Of a stretch of 64,000 bases of DNA, positions 3,311-62,221 are shown one piece after another (positions within the stretch are counted from its first letter, which is position 1; the number at the start of each line of letters is the position of its first letter). The translations under genes and the position numbers were made by a program. Source of the stretch: Candidatus Tayloriibacteriota bacterium (lineage in GTDB: Bacteria > Patescibacteriota > Minisyncoccia > Phycocordibacterales > PALSA-1337); contig CALRAJ010000001.1 of the NCBI GenBank assembly GCA_943350765.1, forward strand, positions 191,066 to 255,065. The letters are read 5' to 3'. The notes beneath the pieces are model-generated. The model saw only the letters and a program-made list of their open reading frames with translations. It had not been told where the DNA came from and did not search any database.

Positions 3311-3382
3311 GAGATAGTAGTATATACTGCCTTAGAAAAAAAATCAAACTTTTTAAAACTACCCGGACTTGTCTAGCTCACT

Positions 3383-3724
3383 CTACGCCGCTTCAGCATG
3401 CTCTTGATTTCCTCCGTAGTCGTTTTTGTATAGCCAATATTCCATCTGCTCTAGTGCAGGCACTGGGTCAGATTGATAAAGTACCAATATCTCAGGGTGC
3501 TCTACTAAAACCCTGCGGTACCCAGCTGAAAATTTATGATTATTATGCATCACCCAATCATACAAACAATCATTTAAATCTTCTTTTGTAATTTCCTTAC
3601 CATACTTTCCATAATATCTAAGTGCTAAATCACGCTGAAAATACGCATGCACCGTATTTATCTCACGAGACTTTACCTTTTCAATTGGGATTTCCTCGAT
3701 ATTACTCATACAGATAGTATACAC
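3383..3724 (-). CDS. Hypothetical protein
   Basis: 113-aa ORF with ordinary composition and no recognisable motif. The true start may be the internal M at MSNIEE. Confidence 0.35.
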   Translation of the reverse strand: MYTICMSNIEEIPIEKVKSREINTVHAYFQRDLALRYYGKYGKEITKEDLNDCLYDWVMHNNHKFSAGYRRVLVEHPEILVLYQSDPVPALEQMEYWLYKNDYGGNQEHAEAA

Positions 3725-5357: not shown

Positions 5358-5552
5358 AATTACCCCAAATAACCCTGCGGCGTACTCGTCGCGGGTACAA
5401 TCATACCTATATCAAAACCACACCCAAATGCTCAAATATTTAAACGGCTAAACACTAGTGTTTAGCCGTTTAATCTGGCTCTGTAGAGCCATTTAGACTT
5501 TTTACCGAAAACTATCATTTTTAAGTAAAAAACTATGATAATTCACTGTTTC

Positions 5553-6434
5553 CTACCCTAGAAAACTAAACACTCTCATCTTTTCCTCCACCACTTGCGA
5601 TACTGCGTCTCTAGAAGGAGCGAGATATTTGTATGGAGCGACTTCTTTTGGATTGGCAGAGAGTGTCGTGTCCAGAGTACTTCGATATGCCACTCGAAGC
5701 TCAGTATTTACATGCACAATAGCCACACCAGCTTTGATTGCCGACTGAATATCCGCATCAGTATTACCAGATGCACCATGAAGTACGAGTGGTACGCCAG
5801 TCGCCTCTGACACCTCTGCCACTCGAGAGATATTGAGTGCGGGATCCTTCCATTTTGCAAGCATGCCGTGAATATTTCCCACGGCAGGTGCTAGCATATC
5901 TACACCAGTCTCATCGACATATCGCTTGGCTTGCTCTGCTGTGGTCAGGTATTCGTCAGATAGATTGATCCCCTCTGGCACAGCATCGAGTACCTTTGAA
6001 GATTTGCCGATATAGCCCAGCTCTGCCTCGACGAGTACTCGCTCACCAAAAAGTGGCTTCTGACTTTTTGCATACTCTACACACTGCTTTGCCACTCTAA
6101 TATTTTCCTCAAACGATAGCTCCGTGCCGTCAAAGATGACCATATCGAAACCGAGGTCGATAGCCTCTTTTACTCGCTCAAAAGAATAGGTATGGTCAGC
6201 GTTTATAAAAATCGGGAAATCGTACTGAGTACGCAAGCTTTTGACTAGAGCTACCGCTTGCTTTGCACCTATAAAATCTCGCTCGCCTTCAGAAACACCG
6301 ATAATGACAGGTAATTTTAATTTCCTTGCCGAATTAAACACCCCCCACAATCCCACTGTGTCGGAGATATTAAAATGACCAATAGCTGTCTTTTTTTCCT
6401 GAGCCTCACTGATGTATTGTTTTAGTGTTTTCAT
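5553..6434 (-). CDS. fba: Class II fructose-bisphosphate aldolase
   Basis: MKTLKQYISEAQEKKTAIGHFNISD...VIIGVSEGE...HGASG...LHGASGNTD shows class II FBA/tagatose-bisphosphate aldolase motifs. The start was set at MKTLKQ rather than the upstream in-frame M. Confidence 0.85.
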   Translation of the reverse strand: MKTLKQYISEAQEKKTAIGHFNISDTVGLWGVFNSARKLKLPVIIGVSEGERDFIGAKQAVALVKSLRTQYDFPIFINADHTYSFERVKEAIDLGFDMVIFDGTELSFEENIRVAKQCVEYAKSQKPLFGERVLVEAELGYIGKSSKVLDAVPEGINLSDEYLTTAEQAKRYVDETGVDMLAPAVGNIHGMLAKWKDPALNISRVAEVSEATGVPLVLHGASGNTDADIQSAIKAGVAIVHVNTELRVAYRSTLDTTLSANPKEVAPYKYLAPSRDAVSQVVEEKMRVFSFLG

Positions 6435-10140: not shown

Positions 10141-10300
10141 ACCCAAACAAGCCGTAAAGGCTCGAGGAGTGGAGACGACGAAGATACAGGAGCCACATAT
10201 CGGTGGCGGGAGTACTGAGCTCAGTAGAGCGAATGTGACGGGCTAGCAAGACGCGTTACAAGCACGGTACACCGTTGAGCCTTTCCGCCAAACCACGCCC
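10141..10300. repeat. Dispersed intergenic repeat, family 1 copy A
   Basis: GAAGATACAGGAGCCACATATCGGTGGCGGGAGTACTGAGCTCAGTAGAGCGAATGTGACGG...GTTACAAGCACGG..GTTGAGCC. Near-identical copies lie at 54815-54945 (same orientation) and 27236-27350 (inverted). Related units lie at 20560-20720 and 51285-51425. Confidence 0.7.
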
Positions 10301-12878: not shown

Positions 12879-13061
12879 CCTAACTTGTGGATAAGACATG
12901 GTTTGCCAGCAGTGCATGTATATACCCTTTATTTAAGCCATATTTTGGTCTAAAGGCTCAACGGTACCCGTTGAGCCTTTGAAGCTATAAACGCTCTAAA
13001 AATAGCGAAATTGCTTTGCCAGACATTATGCTATAATAATCGCACCTATAAAAATACAAAT

Positions 13062-20390: not shown

Positions 20391-20559
20391 CTTTTTTCAC
20401 ACTTTAGATCACTTTTAACAGTCAAATCTCTAAAATATGGCTCTAGATATAGCTATTCTCCAGACCTCCAAAATAGGTATGGTCGACAAAAATTGTATAA
20501 AATACCATCTATAAGGTTGCTTCGCTCTATTGGCCGATACCGAGGAAGATACCTCGGTA

Positions 20560-20720
20560 CGCAAGAGCCATACTGGTGGCGAAAGTCCTGAGCCTAGCAG
20601 GGCGTAGGGTAGGAGACACGACGGTGGCGGGCATGCTGAGCTCAGTAGAGCGTAGTACTCGATTTATATAGTCGCTCCGCTCCTTATAAATCGGTGCTTG
20701 CCCTACGCTTTGGTAAGCTC
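20560..20720. repeat. Dispersed intergenic repeat, family 1, composite copy D (tandem and inverted units)
   Basis: AGAGCCATACTGGTGGCGAAAGTCCTGAGCCTAGCAGGGCGTAGGGTA ... GGTGGCGGGCATGCTGAGCTCAGTAGAGCGTAGTACTCG ... TGCCCTACGCTTTGGTAAGCTCAGGACTTTCGGTGCC. Confidence 0.6.
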
Positions 20721-27350: not shown

Positions 27351-27984
27351 CTTGAGCCGTTCAAATGGCTATACAGAGCCGTTTTATGAAGATTGGTAAG
27401 GACGAGTTTAAGGTGTGATTTGCCTCAATGGCTCAACCACACTGGTTGAGCCATTGAGGCAAAATACGGCATTATTTGAGGCTCACTTTCCATCCTCTAT
27501 ATATGTGGATAATAGAATTGACAGTAAAACTAAAAGTAGTACAGTAAACATTGGCATCTCCCCTAAATCCGATCACTTCAGTGAATAGGGTGAGGAGGTG
27601 GAGTTTGGAACAAACATTGGAGGTATTATGGAAGTAAAGCCCCTTAGTCTCATTGAACAAGTGTTGATTGAGGATCCCAAAAACATTGGTATCCTGTTCT
27701 ATTTTGAGAATTTGCTCGAAGAGAGTATCAGACTCACGGGTGGTTCCTGAAAAAACTTTTAACTCGCAAGCTATTTGGTAACTCGAATGGCTTTTTTTTA
27801 TATATAATTTTGCATGGTGTATTTGAACTAAAGTTTGCACATAAAGCCAAACAAGAGTAATATATACTACATTCAAAGATTGTTATGGCTACCAACCATA
27901 AATCCGCCAAAAGTGGATGACAAAATCCTAATTTGAAACAAATAATACCCTCTCCAATTAACGCTTGGACACTTATCTCATCAA

Positions 27985-37547: not shown

Positions 37548-38345
37548 TTACTTCGCTAAAAAAATCGGGAACTCGAATTTTAAATTGTATCCTTTTTTTG
37601 TTACTCTAGCACTATTTTTACAATCTTTTAGAATCTCTTGTCCTAAGCCAATATCATCACCTGTTAAACCATAGCGCTTGATGTGGTCTTGCTCAGTTAA
37701 ATTAAGAATCTTTCCTCCTCCAATCTTCTCAAAAAAATTAAAACCTGCGTTTAAATAAATACTCTCTAAATCAGATGATTGAAAAAGTCTTTTGCCGATT
37801 TTATTAACAGTATTGTACATCAAACTCACTAAATTTCTCTCGACAACATCAGAAATATACGCAGGCTGATTTATAAATAATCCCTCAGACTTTAGATGCC
37901 TTTTAATTATCTTTAGCACGGTAATTTGTAATTCTTCTGAAGGGAAATAATCCAGTGCACTTCGCATAATAATGAGGTCAAATTTTTTACCCAAGTCCAT
38001 GTCAAGTAAATCGAGGCAAAATCTTTTGGTTTTTGGATTTTTATTTTCATCAAGATGTTTTTGAGAAATATCGACAATAGTAAGATTAGCTTTCCCAAGG
38101 TTAGCGAGCAATCTCTCGCCGAGAAGTCCAGAAGCCGATGCAACATATAAAATATCGAGCTCTTTATTTGGTAAGAAAGGCTTAACTGCACTTATAAACA
38201 ATTGGATATTATCTTCATCTGAAAAATAATTCCCATACGTTAAAAGCCATTCCTTGCCGAGAACCTTTTTATCTCTGTCCAAATTATATTTTGCTAATCT
38301 CGATGTCATACTTTTTAGAAAAAATCTATTCTTTGATAGATACAA
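37548..38345 (-). CDS. Class I SAM-dependent methyltransferase-like protein
   Basis: Motif I-like ILYVASASGLLGERL and an acidic motif II (TIVDIS). The fold assignment is tentative. Confidence 0.45.
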   Translation of the reverse strand: MYLSKNRFFLKSMTSRLAKYNLDRDKKVLGKEWLLTYGNYFSDEDNIQLFISAVKPFLPNKELDILYVASASGLLGERLLANLGKANLTIVDISQKHLDENKNPKTKRFCLDLLDMDLGKKFDLIIMRSALDYFPSEELQITVLKIIKRHLKSEGLFINQPAYISDVVERNLVSLMYNTVNKIGKRLFQSSDLESIYLNAGFNFFEKIGGGKILNLTEQDHIKRYGLTGDDIGLGQEILKDCKNSARVTKKGYNLKFEFPIFLAK

Positions 38346-38448: not shown

Positions 38449-38736
38449 CTAATTCCCCATTCGTTTTAACTTTCTATAGACATCATCGTCATTTCTTTTT
38501 CCTATCAAAGTCATATACAAAAACTCTTTAGACCAGCGGTAAACGATTCGGTACTCACCGATATCAGCGCGGTAATATTCTTTGTATCCGCGCAAAATAC
38601 TTGCATCCGATGCTTTCGGATTTTCAGCGAGTTTAAAAATCTTTTCGGCTATTTGCCGACACTGCTTCGGTGGCAATTTTTTAAGAAACTTCTCAGAGAC
38701 TCTTGAGAGATTAATCTCGAGCATGGAGAGCTTCAT
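38449..38736 (-). CDS. RelE/ParE-family type II toxin
   Basis: 95 aa. ...YRADIGEYRIVYRWSKEFLYMTLIGKRNDDDVY is a RelE/ParE-like C-terminal pattern. It overlaps the upstream antitoxin gene by 26 nt. Confidence 0.65.
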   Translation of the reverse strand: MKLSMLEINLSRVSEKFLKKLPPKQCRQIAEKIFKLAENPKASDASILRGYKEYYRADIGEYRIVYRWSKEFLYMTLIGKRNDDDVYRKLKRMGN

Positions 38737-38989
38737 TTAAAAGCTTGCGACTTTTAGCCACTCCAATATAGCCCTTTTTATGTGCGCGAGTAGAGAGCTC
38801 GCCCCAATACGCGTCTCGACGAGCCTCAAATTCATTGTACTCATCCATAGACATAACTACCGCCACCTGTCGGCCATTTTTCAGGACGGCCACAGGAGAT
38901 AGTCGTGCCTCTTCTAAAAGCCGTCCGAAATTATTCTTCGCTTCTTTTGCAGTAAAGATTGATGTGATCATGGTAGCTATTATAGCCAA
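38711..38989 (-). CDS. Phd/YefM-family antitoxin
   Basis: 92 aa. TAKEAKNNFGRLLEEARLSPVAVLKNGRQVAVVMSMDEYNEF is the classic Phd/YefM N-terminus. Confidence 0.7.
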   Translation of the reverse strand: MAIIATMITSIFTAKEAKNNFGRLLEEARLSPVAVLKNGRQVAVVMSMDEYNEFEARRDAYWGELSTRAHKKGYIGVAKSRKLLNEALHARD

Positions 38990-40553: not shown

Positions 40554-41846
40554 TTAAGGTTTCTTATCGAGAAGCCATTTCCAGAGTGGTTTGAATTGTA
40601 TAGTCTTCCCGTCTTTTTTCACTTCTCGTTCCTCGTCCCATGTGAGTATGGTAAGCGTGTCTACATTTAATTCACCGCTTGCTTCAAATAGGGCTCTTGT
40701 TTCTCTCTGCTCGACATCTGAATTTATTGACTCATAGCAAACTTGTATCAGTTCGGTTACCACATGTCCTTGCTTGAGTACAAAATCGACTTCGCGTTCA
40801 TTACGAGTCTTATAATAGAACAATTCTCTATTTGGTTTAGCTCCACGCTTGACCAATTCAGTAAAGACCAAGTTTTCCATTAGTTTGCCTTTATCAGGAG
40901 AGTGTTGTACTGCTTTGGCAATTATAAAACCGTTATCAACAGCATAAACCTTTCGGGGAGATTTTATACGTTCCATTGATTTTGGAGAGTATCGTAGTAG
41001 AGAAAAGACTAGATACGCTTCCTCAAGATAATTTATATATTTCTCTATGGTTGTAGTGCTCTTTAAATTCAAAGCCTCCATCAGTTTTCTAACTGTATAT
41101 AAACTAGAAAAATTGTTTATCAGATGATTGGCTAGATTGCTTACCTGAGTTGAGAATTTAACTCTATGTCTTTTGACCACATCCTTGAAAAGTACTGCAT
41201 CAAGAAGAACATCAAGATAGTCTTTGGGGTCGACATTGCTTACCGCCACCTCGGGAAATCCACCGTTGAGCAGATAGTTCTCCGTAAGATTCAGAAGCTC
41301 GCCTCGTTGTCGTGGCAAAGAAGAGTATTCCTGATTTATTTGAAATTTTTTTGATCGAAGAAATTCATTGAAATCAAACGGTAGTATTTCTATGGGCATA
41401 TGTCTGCCAGTAAGGTGTGTAGCAAGTTCTTTCGAAAGCAATTGTGCGTTGGACCCAGTGAGTACCAAATTGTATCCGCCTCGGTGCAGACGATTTGCAA
41501 ATAACTCCCAACTTGGCAAGTTTTGAATCTCGTCAAATAAAATGGTTTTTACATCACTGCCATAAGTGGCGTGCAGTTCTTTCATTAGTTCATCCGTAGA
41601 TATGCCCCCCACACTCGACAATACTTCATCATCGAAATTGAAGTACATAAACGGACGGTCTTTCAAAAGTACGAGCGAAAATATTGATTTTCCAGCTCGT
41701 CTGGGACCGAGAACTACTTTTATCAAACTAGAATCCAGCCATTTTTTAGCAAATGGTTCTTTGGTTCGATCTATATAAGCAAGAGCTAAAAGCTCCTCTT
41801 TTTGTAGTTTTTGACCAGAAACTATATCTTTTAGGTTATTTTGCAT
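40554..41846 (-). CDS. AAA-family ATPase with a C-terminal DUF4143-like region
   Basis: Walker A (GPRRAGKS) and Walker B (ILFDEIQ). Length is about 430 aa, and the architecture is typical of the AAA_14/DUF4143 proteins. Confidence 0.6.
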   Translation of the reverse strand: MQNNLKDIVSGQKLQKEELLALAYIDRTKEPFAKKWLDSSLIKVVLGPRRAGKSIFSLVLLKDRPFMYFNFDDEVLSSVGGISTDELMKELHATYGSDVKTILFDEIQNLPSWELFANRLHRGGYNLVLTGSNAQLLSKELATHLTGRHMPIEILPFDFNEFLRSKKFQINQEYSSLPRQRGELLNLTENYLLNGGFPEVAVSNVDPKDYLDVLLDAVLFKDVVKRHRVKFSTQVSNLANHLINNFSSLYTVRKLMEALNLKSTTTIEKYINYLEEAYLVFSLLRYSPKSMERIKSPRKVYAVDNGFIIAKAVQHSPDKGKLMENLVFTELVKRGAKPNRELFYYKTRNEREVDFVLKQGHVVTELIQVCYESINSDVEQRETRALFEASGELNVDTLTILTWDEEREVKKDGKTIQFKPLWKWLLDKKP

Positions 41847-41883
41847 AGTATTTTACTTACACTGGGCAAAATAGGTTGTTTTT

Positions 41884-41908
41884 GACCAGTACAGATAGTA
41901 TACTGGTC
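41884..41908. promoter_or_regulatory. Palindrome GACCAGTA-CAGATAGTA-TACTGGTC in the divergent promoter region
   Basis: An 8-bp perfect inverted repeat centred between the divergently transcribed AAA ATPase and PrimPol-helicase genes. Confidence 0.35.
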
Positions 41909-41962
41909 AGGATTGGGGACGTCAACAAACAATGTGGGTAATCGAAAAATACCCTAAATTTT

Positions 41963-44116
41963 ATGATTTCTATCACCGAACAACATCTTGAGTTATTTAT
42001 ATCGCTGTTCCGAGGAAGAACGGATGTGTATGCGCGTCGGTGGGAAAAAGAAGGTCGGTCTGGATACAGCCCAGCATATGAATTTAATTGGGATGAGTTC
42101 ATGACACATAAGCGACGTGGTGGCTCGATGAAAGATTTTGAAAATAAGAGACTGATACCGCTGACTCGAGATGTTATTAGAAAACATCTTATTGGTCAGC
42201 ATGTGATTGGCATATATCCTATCCTGCCCGAAAACACATCGTACTTTATTGCGGCTGATTTTGATGGTGAAAATTGGTTGAACGATAGTAAGAATTTTCT
42301 TGTAGTTTGTGTAGAAGCAGGATTATCGGCATATCTTGAACAATCGCGCTCTGGAAATGGCGGTCATGTTTGGATTTTCTTTTCCGAAGCATATCCATGC
42401 TATAAAAGTCGGCAAGTTGCACTTGAACTTATTCGTAAGGCCTTTGATGTTTCTGAATTTGAAAAAGATGTTAGCTTTGATCGTTTATTCCCAAATCAAG
42501 ACACCTTGAGCAAAGCTGGTTTTGGTAATCTTATTGCTCTCCCCCTTCAAGGAAAATCGGTGGAAAATAGCAATGCTGTTTTTATTGATCCAGAGACAGC
42601 AAAACCATTTCCTGATCAATGGCAGTTTCTTGCTGATATCAAAAGACACACTGTTACTGAATTGGATTCAATACACCAAGAAATCTTTGCAGACACTGGA
42701 AAGCCAGTGTTAAAAACACGATCTGATAATGTATTAGAAATTTTTGTAAGTAATCAAATCAATTTAAGAAGAGCAGAACTTACTCCTACACTCATTCATT
42801 TTCTCAAAGCGGAACTCAATTTTCTTAATACTGAATATCTAACTAAACTAAGGTTGGGAAAATCAGTCTATGGTGTAGAAAAATACTTTAAATTGATTGA
42901 TGAAGAAGGTGACATCGTTTCCTTGCCTCGTGGGTTTTTACAAAAACTTGTCAACTTTCTCAAAGAAAATAATATCGCCTATAAAATACGATTTAATATC
43001 CCCTCTTTTGAGGAAACTCATTATAAAAGTCAAATAGAATTAAAGCCATCACAAATACCAATTATAGAGACAGCTACACAATCTGATCAAGGTGTAATTG
43101 TTGCTCCATCCGGCAGTGGCAAAACTATTATCGGCTTGGAACTCATGGCTCGTAAGCAATTACCAGCTCTTATTCTTGTCCATCGTAAGCAGTTACTAGA
43201 TCAATGGATTGAAAGAATACAGTCGTTTTTAGGAATTACAAAACTACATATTGGCCAATATTCGGGAACAAAGAAAAAGTTAGGCAAGCAGATAACCATC
43301 GGTTTATTGCAGAGCCTAGCTCGTAAAGGTGACGTGTCAGAATTTAGAGATAAATTTGGCACAATTATCGTAGACGAATGCCATCATATTCCAGCAGCTA
43401 CTTTTCGAAAAGTCATCGCACAACTCAATCCAAAATATATTTATGGCCTTACTGCTACACCAAAACGAAAACATAACGATGAAAAATTGATCTACGCCTA
43501 TATAGGCGAGATTATTGCTCACATGGAAGCTTTAGATACTACTCCGATTTCCAATCTCCCCTATCAATCACCAGAAATTTTAATCCGCACAACAAATTTG
43601 GCTGTACCCTTTAAGTTTTCTACTGACCATTTTCAACTCTTAGCTAAAGTCGTTTGTTTTGATACCACCAGAAATCAGATGATCATTGAGGATATTTTAA
43701 GTAAAGTTACTGATAACAAAAAATTGCTTGTGTTGAGCGAGCGTAAAGAGCATTTGGAAATTTTGGCTATGTACCTCAAAGGCAAATGCGAGACAATCGT
43801 TATTTCAGGAGATGATTCTGCTCCTAAAAGAAAATCGAAACTCAAACAGATTGAGTCCGGACATTATCAAGTCATTTTTTCCACGGGCCAGTTTTTTGGC
43901 GAAGGTCTGGATATTAGAAGTATTTCTTGTCTCATCTTGGCGTTTCCGTTTTCGTTTGAAGGTAAACTTGTTCAATATATGGGGCGTCTCCGAGATATCG
44001 GGGTTCAGAAAATAATCATTGACTATCGAGATACACAGATTCCATTTTTGGAGAAACAGTTCAAACAACGCGAACGATATTATAAAAAGCTTAAAGCTCA
44101 GATAAAATTTGCTTAA
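41963..44116 (+). CDS. Primase-polymerase (PrimPol/AEP) N-terminal domain fused to an SF2 DExH-box helicase
   Basis: N-terminal domain has IGIYPI...YFIAADFDGE (DxD) and SRSGNGGHVWIFF (sGxGxH), the hallmarks of bifunctional Prim-Pol. C-terminal domain has Walker A VIVAPSGSGKT, DECH box IIVDECHH, motif III LTATP and helicase-C motifs (FSTGQFFGEGLDI, QYMGRLRD). Confidence 0.65.
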   Translation: MISITEQHLELFISLFRGRTDVYARRWEKEGRSGYSPAYEFNWDEFMTHKRRGGSMKDFENKRLIPLTRDVIRKHLIGQHVIGIYPILPENTSYFIAADFDGENWLNDSKNFLVVCVEAGLSAYLEQSRSGNGGHVWIFFSEAYPCYKSRQVALELIRKAFDVSEFEKDVSFDRLFPNQDTLSKAGFGNLIALPLQGKSVENSNAVFIDPETAKPFPDQWQFLADIKRHTVTELDSIHQEIFADTGKPVLKTRSDNVLEIFVSNQINLRRAELTPTLIHFLKAELNFLNTEYLTKLRLGKSVYGVEKYFKLIDEEGDIVSLPRGFLQKLVNFLKENNIAYKIRFNIPSFEETHYKSQIELKPSQIPIIETATQSDQGVIVAPSGSGKTIIGLELMARKQLPALILVHRKQLLDQWIERIQSFLGITKLHIGQYSGTKKKLGKQITIGLLQSLARKGDVSEFRDKFGTIIVDECHHIPAATFRKVIAQLNPKYIYGLTATPKRKHNDEKLIYAYIGEIIAHMEALDTTPISNLPYQSPEILIRTTNLAVPFKFSTDHFQLLAKVVCFDTTRNQMIIEDILSKVTDNKKLLVLSERKEHLEILAMYLKGKCETIVISGDDSAPKRKSKLKQIESGHYQVIFSTGQFFGEGLDIRSISCLILAFPFSFEGKLVQYMGRLRDIGVQKIIIDYRDTQIPFLEKQFKQRERYYKKLKAQIKFA

Positions 44117-44240
44117 TATTGCTTAAGTTAAGCAAATCGTAGCAAGCTCTCAGAATTCGTTCGCAGTCGTTTTCGGTTTCTGAATCGGTACAAATCTCTT
44201 ACTCTCGGCACAAAACTCGCCACACGGGCAACTACGGGGT

Positions 44241-44425
44241 AATAAAGTTTAGTCTCGTCCTATCCCCGTAGCAAGCTATACCCTCGGACTACCTCGGCGG
44301 GGTATTAGGCGAGACATCTGGGTAAACTTTGTTGTATAGGTGTCGGCTCCGCCGACTTCATCCTCATTCTTGCGGATTCATCCCCGCGGCAAGCCGTCGG
44401 GGTATTCTCCACAATTACAATAAAC
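44241..44425 (+). ncRNA. Conserved structured element of about 185 nt, copy 1 (unknown class)
   Basis: About 93% identical to 55016-55199 in the same orientation. Internal complementary segments include AAAGTTTAG/TAAACTTTG, GTCTCGTCC/GGCGAGAC, CCCCG/CGGGG and GTCGG/CCGAC. No ORF. Confidence 0.4.
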
Positions 44426-44599
44426 TAAATACAAAAAAGCCCGAGTGGGCGATTTTTGTTTACATTTCCTTTTCTTGTTTATCTCCTAACCAAAGCGTGG
44501 TCGATCCCTAGCTGAATCTTTAGCCCTTCATTGGTGCATGTCACTACAAAGACTTTTTCATTAGTTTCAAAATACCACTTTTTACCCAGTCTTGTCAAT

Positions 44600-45538
44600 T
44601 TACCTCAGGTACCTATTTTTATTTGCTACATGCTCCTCAAAAGTTCTAGCGTAGTGCATCTCCCCTTTTTTATCTGAAAGATAGTATAAATAGGGAGTTT
44701 TGATAGGAGTTATTGCAGAAGAAATAGAATCTATTCCGGGGTTGGTAATAGGTGTAGGTGGCAGGCCTCTGTATAAATACAAATTGTACGGCGAATCTAT
44801 TTTTAAATCCTCTAAGGAAATATCCTCACCCTTCTTTTTGCCTTCTATATAAGCAAAAGTCACATCTACCTGAAGTGGCATTCCTATTGAAATTCGTTTC
44901 CATAAAATCCCAGCGATAATTCTCCTAGACTCTGTTGTTCGAGCCTCTTCTTCAAGAATCGAAGCCATCTTTATAACATCAGTCAATGGTTTAGCAAAAA
45001 CCTTCAAATCATTACTCATAGCAGCGACTCTCCTATCGAAATTGGCCAGCATCATATCAACCACTTCCTCCGCACTCACACTCGGCAAAATGTAATAGGT
45101 ATCCGGAAAGAGATAGCCCTCGTGTTTCTTTGCAATCTTAATAAATTCATCATACTTGAAACTTATTGAGTATTTTTCTAAAATACGCCCCACATCAACA
45201 ACTGTTGTTCCCTCTGGAATAGTAACTTTTATGGGAGTTAAACCGTATTCCCCAGTAGTTATTCTCGAAGCAATCTGTATTAGGTTTAAAGGTTTTTTAA
45301 AAATATAAACACCAGAGGCTAGATTTCCTTGATTTCCAGACGCAACGACCACCAACTTAAACAAAAAAGCCGACCTTATAACATGTTTCTCAGCTAGAGA
45401 GTTTGCGACACTAGAAAGTCCAGACCCTTTTGAAATGACAAAATAATCTCCCTTGGGAAAGGAGTCTGGTGCACGAATACCAATCAAGGAAAAAACAAAA
45501 AAAACCAAGACAATGTAGAGGATTACTTTTTTCCTCAT
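44600..45538 (-). CDS. mltG: Endolytic murein transglycosylase MltG (YceG family)
   Basis: N-terminal TM helix. Motifs EGYLFPDTYY and ...LYRGLPPTPITNPG... are characteristic of YceG/MltG. Confidence 0.75.
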   Translation of the reverse strand: MRKKVILYIVLVFFVFSLIGIRAPDSFPKGDYFVISKGSGLSSVANSLAEKHVIRSAFLFKLVVVASGNQGNLASGVYIFKKPLNLIQIASRITTGEYGLTPIKVTIPEGTTVVDVGRILEKYSISFKYDEFIKIAKKHEGYLFPDTYYILPSVSAEEVVDMMLANFDRRVAAMSNDLKVFAKPLTDVIKMASILEEEARTTESRRIIAGILWKRISIGMPLQVDVTFAYIEGKKKGEDISLEDLKIDSPYNLYLYRGLPPTPITNPGIDSISSAITPIKTPYLYYLSDKKGEMHYARTFEEHVANKNRYLR

Positions 45539-51284: not shown

Positions 51285-51425
51285 GAGCGGGAGCCAAGAG
51301 CCATACTGGTGGCGAAAGTCCTGAGCTTAGCAAAGCGTAGGGCAAGAGCCATACAGGAGCCATACTGGTGGCGGGAGTACTAAAGCTCACCAGAGCGTAG
51401 TACTGGTAGCGAAGATGCTGAGTTT
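51285..51425. repeat. Dispersed intergenic repeat, family 1, tandem-unit copy E
   Basis: Repeated units AGAGCCATACTGGTGGCG[AG][AG]AGT.CTGAGCT.AGCA.AGCGTAG, between two and three units. Confidence 0.6.
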
Positions 51426-54325: not shown

Positions 54326-54814
54326 AGGAACACACTATAACACAATTTTAATTAGGAATGAAATAATAAATACAAAAGGCGTCCGTGTGTGGACACGAAC
54401 GCCTGAGTGAGAACAGCCAAAATGGCCGTGAACGAAACGAATTTGCAACGAAATACTCAAAGCCCAGGGGCCTTTACCCTGTCCTGGCTTCCACAAACCA
54501 GGGGCTTGAGCCATTTCGCTGCTCCCAAAAAACAGGATGGAGTGATGCTCATAATACCAGCACTTTCAACCTGCTCGATCCGCAACTGATAATACATGCC
54601 CACAAGGAGCTCGTAGAAGAATCTCATAGCTTTCTTTCTGCGACCGACATACTTTATATCATACTGCATCACAAAATACAAGTATCTAAAAAAGAACTTG
54701 ATATTTTCAGTCCAAAGGCTAAACAATGTATGTTTGAGCCTTTGGGTCGTTTTTACCCCGAAATCTCATTACTGCCTATTCTGTAGGGTGCCTCTACAAA
54801 GCCATTTGAACGGC

Positions 54815-54945
54815 TCAAGGAGCGTAGGCGACGAAGATACAGGAGCCATATCGGTGGCGGGAGTAATGAGCTCAGCAGAGCGAATGTGACGGTCTAGTAG
54901 GATTCGTTACAAGCACAGGGCTGTTGAGCCGTTAGATTTTACCTA
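54815..54945. repeat. Dispersed intergenic repeat, family 1 copy C
   Basis: GACGAAGATACAGGAGCCATATCGGTGGCGGGAGTAATGAGCTCAGCAGAGCGAATGTGACGG..GTTACAAGCACAGGGCTGTTGAGCCGTTAG. Near-identical to copy A. Confidence 0.65.
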
Positions 54946-55015: not shown

Positions 55016-55199
55016 AATAAAGTTTAGCCTCGTCCTATCCCCGTAGCAAGCTATTCCCTCGGATTACCTCGGCGGGGTATTAGGCGAGACGACAGGGTAA
55101 ACTTTGTTGCAAGAGTGTCGGCTCCGCCGACCTCATCTTCATTCTTGCGGATTCATCCCCGCGGCAAGCCGTCGGGGTATTCTCCACAATTGCAATAAA
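55016..55199 (+). ncRNA. Conserved structured element of about 185 nt, copy 2 (unknown class)
   Basis: About 93% identical to 44241-44425. Substitutions cluster in predicted loop or bulge segments (for example ATCTGGG versus GACAGGG, and GTATAGG versus GCAAGAG). Confidence 0.4.
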
Positions 55200-58841: not shown

Positions 58842-59069
58842 ATACGATATCGAACACCTAGGTACCCTGAACTACGAAAATCTATTTAAAATATACACCT
58901 TCAAAGTATTTAGTGATTTGGGGTCATAAACTTAAACGGCTAAACACTAGCGTTTAGCCGTTTAAAGCTAGTACTAGAGCCATATTTTAGCCTAAAGGCT
59001 CAACGGCGCGCCGTTGAGCCTTTAAGCTATTTTCTCCTCCACCACCCACCTCCCCATAGAATCTAAAAA

Positions 59070-60484: not shown

Positions 60485-62221
60485 TTATTTCCTAGAAAGT
60501 TTTGCCAGTGTATTGCTCAATTCCTGACAACGCGCGAGAAGTACGGTAACCCTATCCACTTCCTTATTTTTTTCTGCTTCATCGAGTGCCTTCATTACTT
60601 GCGCAAACTCTCTTTTTAAATAATCTGTCTCTAAACTTTGGAGCATTTCCTCTATATCTTCTTTTATTTTTTCAGAATTACTATACATGACTTCTGATTC
60701 AAATGCGAGCTCTTGTTTTTTATCCTTACTGTCAGTGAGCACTTTATCCCAATTATCTTTTCCTAAAATATCTTCTAAACGCTTTTTCAGGACATGTACA
60801 TCTAATGTTGGCTTTTCATGAGACTCCTGCCAATAAATAATACTGAGTACCTTTCGCTCTATCGAATCTTTTCTGGAAAGTGGTGATGCTTCTACGATGG
60901 TATTTTTAGCTGTAGACCCTGCCTCAAGTTGCATGCTTTTTTCTAGGCGTTTTAGATCCTCCCAGATTGCGCTTTCATCTATCTTGGTCATATCGCGTAT
61001 TTTTGCAACAAAATGTGCCTTTTCCATACGACTTTGCAAGACAACAATATACGGCAATACTTCCTCAGAGATCGCTTTTGTTAATTTTCTATCGTCCAAG
61101 CCTCTTGCAAGTACTGTGTTCAGATGAAACTCTATTATCTGTTTGGCGTTCCGCAACATATTTTTCCAATCATCTACCGACTGTAAAACAATATCTGCAG
61201 GATCTTTACCTCCCTCTATTTGCACGATTTTAACATCCATTCCCAGAGAAAGTGCCACTTGTGCTGCTCGAGCTGAGGCGCGCACACCAGCGTTATCTGC
61301 ATCAAAAGCAATAATCATATTGGTCGATAATCGCCTAACAAGTCCGAGATTATTTACTACCGCATCTCTGGAAACAACCGAATCAGTGAGTGCAGTACCA
61401 GAGACTGCTACAGTATTTTTTATCCCTGCCTGATGAGACATAATGAGGTCCATTTGCCCTTCAACCAGTATTGAATAATCGCGTTTTCGTATTTCTAACT
61501 TAGCTTTATCTAAACCATAAAGTACATTTGATTTGTTAAATAAAACCGTATCAGGACTGTTTAGATACTTTGCTGACTTACCATCATCTACAAGTATTCT
61601 ACCTGAAAAAGCAATAACTCGGCCACTACTGTCGGAAATAGGGAACATGATCCTACCACGAAATCTATCGTAGTATCCCTTATCAGTTTTTTTAATCAAA
61701 CCAACTTTTTCCATTTCAGCAATCGAAAAGCCTTTTTTGAGTAAATGGTCATATATTGCCCTCCACCCATCAGGTACAAAACCCACTCTAAAATCGGCTA
61801 TCGTTTCATCCTTCAACCCCCTTTTTTTCAAGTATTCTTGAGCTTCTTTATTCCCCTTCAGGACATGCTCATAATATGCAGTAGCTTCTTCTATTGCAGA
61901 ATACAAACGATCTTGCTCACTACGAACCTTTACATTTTCCTTAACTAGTTCCACCCCAGCTCGCAACGCAAGAGTCTTGAGTGCTCCGATAAAATCGAGT
62001 CCTTCAAACTCCTGTACAAAAGTAAATATATCTCCTTTTGCTGCACAGCCAAAGCAGTAGTAGGAACCTCTTTCAGGAGAAACGAAAAAAGACGGTGTTT
62101 TTTCGTTATGAAAAGGACACTTTCCTTTCAGGTTGCCCCCAGCCCTTTCAAGCTTTATATACGATTCTACCACCTCGGTAATCGTCAATCGCTCCTTAAT
62201 TTTTTCGACTGAAGATGACAT
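60485..62221 (-). CDS. dnaG: DNA primase DnaG
   Basis: Zinc-ribbon CPFHNEKTPSFFVSPERGSYYCFGCAAKGD, the TOPRIM domain (…EGQMDLI…DADNAG…) and a C-terminal helicase-interaction region. It lies directly upstream of rpoD, as in the classical dnaG-rpoD operon. Confidence 0.85.
   Translation of the reverse strand: MSSSVEKIKERLTITEVVESYIKLERAGGNLKGKCPFHNEKTPSFFVSPERGSYYCFGCAAKGDIFTFVQEFEGLDFIGALKTLALRAGVELVKENVKVRSEQDRLYSAIEEATAYYEHVLKGNKEAQEYLKKRGLKDETIADFRVGFVPDGWRAIYDHLLKKGFSIAEMEKVGLIKKTDKGYYDRFRGRIMFPISDSSGRVIAFSGRILVDDGKSAKYLNSPDTVLFNKSNVLYGLDKAKLEIRKRDYSILVEGQMDLIMSHQAGIKNTVAVSGTALTDSVVSRDAVVNNLGLVRRLSTNMIIAFDADNAGVRASARAAQVALSLGMDVKIVQIEGGKDPADIVLQSVDDWKNMLRNAKQIIEFHLNTVLARGLDDRKLTKAISEEVLPYIVVLQSRMEKAHFVAKIRDMTKIDESAIWEDLKRLEKSMQLEAGSTAKNTIVEASPLSRKDSIERKVLSIIYWQESHEKPTLDVHVLKKRLEDILGKDNWDKVLTDSKDKKQELAFESEVMYSNSEKIKEDIEEMLQSLETDYLKREFAQVMKALDEAEKNKEVDRVTVLLARCQELSNTLAKLSRK

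Follow-up and report, generated by a model that had tools for sequence, protein, structure and literature searches.

What does a bacterium that already carries a canonical DNA primase do with a second primase fused to a helicase, and does the ATPase gene that faces it belong to the same system? This question is raised by a 64,000-nucleotide (nt) window of a Candidatus Tayloriibacteriota genome, in which an open reading frame (ORF) of 717 amino acids (aa) at 41963-44116 on the plus strand combines a primase-polymerase (Prim-Pol) of AEP (archaeo-eukaryotic primase) type with a superfamily 2 (SF2) helicase. The ORF is divergent from an AAA/DUF4143 ATPase gene at 40554-41846 on the minus strand, as an earlier reading made from the letters and ORFs alone (the sequence-only reading) had described. 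That reading had also taken the gene at 60485-62221 (minus strand) for the canonical dnaG; matches to DNAG_N, Zn_ribbon_DnaG and Toprim agree with this, so the primase of the 717-aa protein is additional. All positions are those of the window, with position 1 as its first letter, and loci in relatives are labelled L002 and so on. We conclude that the 717-aa gene probably encodes an accessory enzyme of conflict or defence that works solo and belongs to the AEP-TOTE / CAPP-like family (CAPP, CRISPR-associated Prim-Pol), and it is from its domains, relatives and neighbours that we infer its activities, its target and its role in defence. The gene and its parts are the following:

41963..44116, plus strand: AEP-TOTE / CAPP-like primase-polymerase and XPB-like SF2 helicase gene, 717 aa (ORF, Pfam, AlphaFold 2 (AF2) model, Foldseek)
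41984..42670, plus strand: AEP (Prim-Pol) catalytic domain, residues 8-236, with D99/D101, H135 and D173 (PF22548, phmmer, TM-score)
42734..42997, plus strand: middle alpha/beta domain, residues ~258-345 (secondary structure in the model, Foldseek span)
43034..44032, plus strand: SF2 helicase/translocase core, residues ~358-690, with GSGKT, DECHH, TATP and QxxGRxxR (Pfam, phmmer, invariant motifs)

The 717-aa protein is a genuine Prim-Pol (AEP) fused to an SF2 helicase. In Pfam, its N-terminal part matched PF22548, 'AEP-TOTE', over residues 8-236 and model positions 2-229 of 230 (E 1.5e-82, 277.1 bits; the gathering cut-off is 27 bits), and its C-terminal part matched ResIII (E 6e-29, residues 358-502) and Helicase_C (E 8.6e-9, residues 575-675). 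The DxD and sGxGxH signatures and the full SF2 core that had been noticed by eye are all present: the Prim-Pol motifs read AADFDGE (D99/D101), SRSGNGGHVWIFF (H135; S130-G133-H135) and FDRLFPNQD (D173), and those of the helicase GSGKT (384-388), DECHH (471-475), LTATP (496-500) and QYMGRLR (671-677). Homologs align starting at residue 1, and in an alignment of 45 of them (62-85% identity), from which residue invariance was judged, D99, D101, H135, D173, K387/T388, D471-H475, T497-P500, Q671, G674, R675 and R677 were invariant in all 45. The position of the RED motif of XPB reads TATPKRKHNDEK, with R502, K503, D506 and E507 invariant in the same alignment.

We then examined the predicted fold. 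The AF2 model has a mean predicted local distance difference test score (pLDDT) of 82; in the Prim-Pol part, the score is mostly 80-94 over residues 1-160 and drops to 53-76 over residues 171-210. Its first 250 residues superpose on CAPP's Prim-Pol domain (7NQD, 7P9J) with a target-normalised TM-score of 0.75-0.82, phmmer aligned the Prim-Pol motifs one by one with those of MsCAPP (7nqd, E 1.5e-15), and the PADLOC profile for Cas-associated PrimPol matched the protein with an E of 2e-77. For residues ~330-717, the best sequence and fold matches were archaeal XPB/Rad25 (S. tokodaii XPBII 5TNU/6P4F; A. fulgidus 2FWR) and T4 UvsW. A phmmer comparison with S. tokodaii XPBII gave an E of 3e-19, and a Foldseek search of the PDB placed archaeal XPB at the top (5TNU, 6P4O; E ~1e-21; XPBII 8e-22), followed by T4 UvsW and the XPB of TFIIH. 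Like XPB, the window protein has Walker A, DECH, TATP and QxxGRxxR motifs and an aligned domain upstream of the motor. Because the Foldseek alignments with XPB cover 440-494 columns and so extend past the motor core of ~360 aa, the middle alpha/beta domain is possibly the equivalent of the XPB damage-recognition domain. Unlike XPB, the protein is fused to a Prim-Pol and has no Bax1-type nuclease partner. Its scores are 95.3 bits with the NCBIfam XPB equivalog (NF045503, cut-off 610) and 85.9 bits with CAPP type A1 (NF040561, cut-off 200). As it lies under both orthology cut-offs, it is related to both XPB and CAPP A1 and an ortholog of neither.

The sequence-only reading had offered an uncharacterised defence module as one possibility, whereas this architecture is already recorded in Pfam, in the NCBI annotation pipeline and in the CAPP literature; the family is catalogued, and the window gene is a further member of it. 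The E. coli relative and an Ignavibacteriaceae homolog of 80% identity are both annotated by NCBI as 'TOTE conflict system archaeo-eukaryotic primase domain-containing protein'. TOTE stands for TPR, OB, TBP and Effector, according to Aravind, Iyer and Burroughs (2022) as relayed in PMC12458937. The AEP domain of the window gene fits the AEP-TOTE model end to end and is fused to an SF2 helicase. A Prim-Pol joined to a helicase is also CAPP_A type 3, the commonest architecture among the non-CRISPR relatives of CAPP (Zabrady et al. 2021, PMC8211822), and the catalytic core of CAPP is by itself an efficient primase (PMC10345425). Compared with this class A type 3 'CAPP-helicase' (PMC8211822; 7NQD, 7P9J), the window protein has the same fold, motifs and arrangement of Prim-Pol and helicase. 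It differs in that the genes within 10 kb show no cas domains and the 64-kb window no array of CRISPR-like repeats, in its score below the A1 cut-off, and in having no TPR or PriCT-like C-terminal domain.

The family is very widespread. Homologs form more than 8,000 clusters at 90% identity, at the least, and the AEP domain alone matched 6,170 representatives at 50% identity, 728 of them with E <= 1e-30. A Patescibacteria copy and an Ignavibacteriaceae copy share 80% identity. The primase-helicase is a cassette of ~2.3 kb, including a 130-nt 3′ flank, which moves by horizontal transfer between Patescibacteria, Ignavibacteriota, Chlorobiota and Bacteroidota, and Proteobacteria have full-length relatives that are more distant. 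Full-length relatives of ~34% identity were found on 98 plasmids, and on a Pantoea plasmid the gene is Tn3-type cargo. In a census of 5,426 complete E. coli genomes at the near-identical DNA level, the E. coli relative (WP_000233452.1) was present in at least 684 at >80% coverage and in 876 with any match. As a side observation, Bacteroidota homologs carry a conserved C-terminal extension of 280-400 aa without a Pfam match, which brings them to ~1,120 aa (L030, L045, L046, L048, L050, L055, L056, L068, L081) or ~1,000 aa (L060-L067, L070), and in L040 and L044 sequence related to this extension is a separate downstream ORF.

We surveyed the surroundings of the primase-helicase in 80 species-representative genomes, with 128 genes as its immediate (±1) neighbours. 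The flanks vary strongly, and because these contexts vary so widely the gene is accessory rather than housekeeping, which bears out the earlier suggestion of a conflict-type gene. Its neighbourhood has the pattern of a defence island, and the gene typically lands in regions of this kind. Among the immediate neighbours, SLFN_AlbA_2 occurs 19 times (14 of these also with HATPase_c_4), HTH-Fic ten times (PADLOC 'SoFic', E 5e-117), AbiEii six times, and RhuM, AbiEi_1, DUF6155 and an M78 peptidase (CapP-like) three times each. Four to five genes away, the mix is broader and includes DRT-type reverse transcriptases, Cas1, type I methyltransferases, PDC-S01/S02/S05 and PD-T4-6. In L083, L084, L004, L006, L007, L013, L016, L019, L026 and L063, the SoFic-type HTH-Fic gene is located upstream of the helicase and points the same way; in L083 (5050-8151) and L084 (914-4015) only 18 nt separate the two. 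Since this Fic-helicase unit is found in two different genomic contexts, a functional link is more plausible here than for the pairing with DUF4143.

SoFic, RhuM and DUF4143 genes often sit in type I restriction-modification operons. A location of the helicase inside such operons was rejected, as an HsdM-like gene lies nearby in one of the 80 loci.

Several points weigh against a role in conflict or defence. The partners that define a TOTE system are missing: neither a TPR-OB (cold-shock/S1) protein nor a TBP-domain protein was seen in the Pfam calls within 10 kb here, in two other neighbourhoods, or among the families matched by at least two of the 128 neighbours (25 families listed). Hence, a complete TOTE system was not encountered, and the gene stands as a solo, effector-type gene. 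No nuclease or other evident toxic effector domain was found by Pfam in the 717-aa protein. Identity among the 120 best-scoring homolog clusters is 62-90%, a conservation that appears unusually high for a defence gene. Related Prim-Pols serve in repair or replication, for example AgaPP (PMC11724360). Finally, no experimental study of the AEP-TOTE primase-helicase family was found in the searchable literature, and the defence role is for that reason one of guilt by association.

If the protein is indeed a conflict or defence enzyme, its XPB-like motor would use ATP to open or remodel DNA, duplex or branched, that belongs to an element in the course of invasion or replication, and the fused Prim-Pol would then prime and extend DNA on the exposed strand. 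The outcome might be that replication of the element is derailed, or that DNA products are generated. Since there is no nuclease domain, any killing step would be indirect.

Could the enzyme instead serve the cell's own DNA? In this alternative, it would be an accessory enzyme of repair or damage tolerance, without any immune role, which reprimes or joins ends after the motor has remodelled stalled forks or lesions. XPB and UvsW are repair or fork-remodelling motors, and Prim-Pols take part in translesion synthesis, repriming and end-joining, with the element-derived AgaPP raising survival after DNA damage (PMC11724360); the high conservation and the missing toxic domain would suit such a role as well. 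However, the distribution is patchy with clear horizontal transfer, and the immediate neighbours are SoFic, AbiE, Schlafen/AlbA_2, RhuM and PDC candidates rather than repair genes. Moreover, the nearest characterised Prim-Pol relatives are CRISPR-associated, and the score of 95 bits is far under the 610 of the XPB equivalog. We therefore regard a repair role as unlikely, and a conflict or defence enzyme remains the preferred reading.

A narrower form of the defence reading involves the DNA behind the gene, in which the sequence-only reading had noticed a hairpin followed by a repeated element. Both are there, the hairpin at 44107-44137 and the element, of 184 nt, at 44241-44424:

44107..44245, plus strand: non-coding 3′ flank, termed flank E, starting with a hairpin that overlaps the stop codon (common to other loci)
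44247..44418, no strand assigned: structured insertion of 172 nt resembling a miniature inverted-repeat transposable element (MITE), with a second copy at 55022-55193 (two copies; absent in relatives)

The arms of the stop-codon hairpin are ATTTGCTTAA (44107-44116) and TTAAGCAAAT (44128-44137), and CAAAGCTC-like motifs are repeated within flank E. This flank of ~130 nt is common to 14 other loci, in 12 of which it stands behind an intact helicase gene, in Fic-type as well as DUF4143-type contexts; it was noted in L003-L008, L026, L079, L082, L085, L091, L153, L154, L161 and L167. It is confined to one sub-clade, of 80% identity or more, and missing from homologs of 77% or less, and in L091, L153, L154 and L161 it is present where the helicase is missing or down to a few codons. 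From this distribution, flank E is read as the right end of the transferred cassette. RNAalifold gave neither a consensus RNA structure nor compensatory pairs in flank E on either strand, and a structured non-coding RNA partner encoded there was dropped as a candidate. A cis-acting role for flank E is possible but unsupported. We consider it quite unlikely that the gene provides self-contained, single-gene immunity against mobile elements, in which the protein would open foreign DNA and prime it aberrantly with no TPR-OB or TBP partner, and flank E would act in cis as a priming or loading site or as a template.

The 172-nt insertion behind flank E is a separate matter. The 184-nt repeat occurs at 44241-44424 and 55016-55199 with 93% identity, and AATAAA stands on both sides of each 172-nt copy (here at 44241-44246 and 44419-44424). 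Homology to L002, L085 and L088, which are ~90-92% identical across the region, stops at ~44246 and restarts at 44419, so that the insertion is absent there at the same site; this does not support the suggested link between the repeated element (given as 185 nt) and the helicase. Nor did the insertion turn up in the other fetched loci (1.78 Mb). Its folding z-score is -3.3 on the plus strand and -5.2 on the minus strand, and by these features it resembles a MITE; it has no relation to the helicase. No Rfam family reached its gathering threshold in the whole window, and a permissive Rfam scan of 44050-44650 gave nothing but a chance match to a snoRNA.

It had also been suggested that the locus is a relic of an integrative or plasmid replicon, in which case the gene would be the replication initiator and flank E with its hairpin the origin. 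AEP-helicase fusions are classic replicases of mobile elements (PMC5862659; PMC10345425), and pRN1 ORF904, PolpTN2 and PrimPol-PV1 (PMC5862659), as well as AgaPP with its PriCT-DUF3987 module (PMC11724360), likewise combine an AEP with a helicase on mobile DNA. The 130-nt flank with its perfect hairpin and repeats moves with the gene, and in E. coli O157:H7 the relative lies in an integrase-bearing island and adjoins an HTH regulator and the replication-type genes YfjI (DUF3987) and inovirus Gp2. However, those mobile-element enzymes have SF3-type or DUF3987 helicases and PriCT or winged-helix domains and sit on recognisable plasmids, viruses or elements, whereas the window protein has no such context and its motor is a monomeric-type, XPB/UvsW-like SF2 enzyme, not a hexameric replicative helicase of SF3/4/6. 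Neither a PriCT nor a winged-helix origin-binding domain was found in the 717-aa protein by Pfam, phmmer or Foldseek. No tRNA or tmRNA genes were found in the window, no integrase in the gene calls up to 10 kb from the helicase, and no flanking att-like direct repeats; integrases are also rare among the neighbours in the 80 loci. Plasmids that bear the primase-helicase encode Rep genes of their own, and in 50,697 phage records there was no full-length copy, only helicase-domain matches. Being intact, with invariant catalytic residues and thousands of homologs, the gene is no relic, and the putative origin, flank E, is restricted to one sub-clade and also occurs without the gene. An initiator of a decayed replicon is thus very unlikely.

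This leaves the ATPase gene that faces the helicase, with the palindrome between them:

40554..41846, minus strand: AAA_14 - helix-turn-helix - DUF4143 (PD-(D/E)xK-type) ATPase, 430 aa (Pfam; PADLOC PDC-S01)
41860..41925, minus strand: ATPase promoter-operator, with -35 TTGACG at 41925-41920 and -10 TATACT at 41902-41897 (promoter scan; conserved layout)
41901-41908 (A), 41884-41891 (B) and 41860-41867 (C), minus strand: operator half-sites (conserved layout in orthologs)

The ATPase matches the PADLOC candidate PDC-S01 (PDLC04787) over its full length (E 3.2e-100, residues 23-428), and PDC-S01 is itself only a phage-defence candidate. DUF4143 has been classed among the PD-(D/E)XK families (PMC3424549). 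The sequence-only reading had placed a perfect 8-bp inverted repeat in a promoter shared by the two genes. The repeat is present and perfect, and its length is really 9 bp (TGACCAGTA at 41883-41891 and TACTGGTCA at 41901-41909, with 9 nt between the arms); it does lie in the 117-bp spacer, but it belongs to the promoter-operator of the ATPase, whether the helicase is present or not. Roughly 0.01 such repeats would be expected by chance per 117-bp spacer. The real support for the palindrome lies in its conservation and co-variation in ~70 other loci, rather than in this estimate. On the minus strand, a sigma70-like promoter is predicted with 10 of 12 matches (TTGACG, a 17-nt spacer and TATACT, 41925-41897), and the promoter scan gave no convincing sigma70-type promoter for the helicase on the plus strand. 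The block consists of the -35 box, site A overlapping the -10 box, site B 9 nt on, and site C 12-20 nt past B. It is conserved upstream of nearly all ATPase orthologs (~70), where its distance to the ATPase start codon is constant, and in ~65 of these loci the helicase is absent. Since this holds with or without the helicase, the palindrome belongs to the ATPase gene.

The half-sites point to the protein that may recognise them. Their types switch jointly at A, B and C, with GTCC in 52 loci, GACC in nine (the window included) and GTGC in seven, and residue 264 is the only one of the 430 ATPase columns that separates all three types: A goes with GTCC (94%), T with GACC (8/9) and V with GTGC (7/7). 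The GACC group is polyphyletic by overall protein identity. In a helix-turn-helix, residue 264 would open the second helix, as suggested by a weak Pfam match to HTH_11 at residues 251-277 and, with little weight, by a low-confidence AlphaFold model (pLDDT 53), from which nothing but the limits of the helices (249-258 and 264-281) was taken. In the ATPase mRNA, sites B and C would also pair into a hairpin at the 5′ end. Since site A lies upstream of the predicted transcript and yet co-varies, recognition of DNA by a protein is favoured. This suggests that the ATPase most likely binds and represses its own promoter through a predicted operator of three half-sites. No earlier account of such a self-operator or of the co-varying residue was found in the full-text literature on DUF4143, which was only partly covered.

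Could the ATPase and the primase-helicase be the two genes of one system, under joint control of a palindromic divergent promoter? About ten loci keep the divergent adjacency, with helicases 76-92% identical to the window copy; the 117-bp spacer is nearly filled by the operator and promoter of the ATPase, so a helicase promoter probably overlaps with them, and both gene types occur in defence islands. However, a DUF4143 gene lies within 8 kb in only seven of the 80 primase-helicase loci, and the divergent arrangement is found only in the lineage of the window. Conversely, among 80 metagenomic orthologs of the ATPase (75-98% identity), the helicase is upstream in five and absent in 75. Every pair-bearing locus in which the flank is retained on that side shares the mnmA side, which implies one ancestral juxtaposition rather than joint transfer. 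In L082 and L085, an insertion of ~200-450 bp separates the operator block from the helicase gene, and the block stays with the start codon of the ATPase. With these counts and an operator that does not depend on the helicase, a two-gene system is most improbable. The DUF4143 ATPase is a highly mobile, independent neighbouring cassette, with copies at ~80% identity or more in Taylor-, Vogel-, Falkow-, Andersen-, Kuenen-, Uhr- and Harrisonbacteria.

Two small ORFs were seen next to these genes. The gap between operator and helicase in L082 contains a 99-aa, cysteine-rich (zinc-ribbon-like) ORF (3317-3616, plus strand). The commonest divergent partner of the ATPase, in 19 of the 80 DUF4143 loci, is an ORF of ~100 aa (MDNRETPPEYKDKF...) without a Pfam match, which lies directly upstream of the ATPase, for example in L104, L106, L108, L115 and L118, and is often degraded; in L093 and L167, a fragment of it separates the ATPase from the helicase.

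In summary, the sequence-only reading had proposed that helicase, ATPase, palindrome and repeated element might be one module, which the pairing frequencies and the restriction to a single lineage do not support. The supposed module is made of four independent mobile pieces, namely the helicase cassette together with its 3′ flank, the probably self-regulated DUF4143 cassette, the 172-nt MITE-like insertion and a ParE/Phd pair, which share one plastic interval from mnmA to mltG as a chance neighbourhood. The last of these, a ParE-type toxin with a Phd/YefM antitoxin, lies at 38449-38989 (minus strand) just past mnmA, beside a class I methyltransferase (37548-38345), and adds to the accessory character of the interval.

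On the other side, just downstream of mltG, a small minus-strand ORF of 39-67 aa with the motif KVFVxTxTNEGLK is kept in relatives (44479-44598 here; 5907-6110, minus strand, in L082). Other short repeats in the window lie at 10156-10265, 20555-20618, 51288-51371 and 54809-54916, and further ones at 1031-1082, 5432-5473, 12936-12988, 27411-27463 and 58924-59030. The scattered repeat families include 64-70-nt repeats and hairpins of the AAAGGCTCAACGG...CCGTTGAGCCTTT type, which resemble terminators or repetitive extragenic palindromic (REP) elements.

For the ATPases, what is new is the operator of DUF4143 (PDC-S01) together with residue 264, which tracks the half-site type and gives a handle on the control of these abundant proteins. 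If single-gene immunity by a primase with flank E as its partner were true, it would be a polymerase-based defence with a logic like that of the DRT reverse-transcriptase systems, only built from a primase. If the role that we infer for the 717-aa protein is right, immune or conflict enzymes based on a primase would make up a very widespread family, with members as far apart as candidate-phyla bacteria and E. coli O157, and thanks to the E. coli copy this family can be tested easily and directly.

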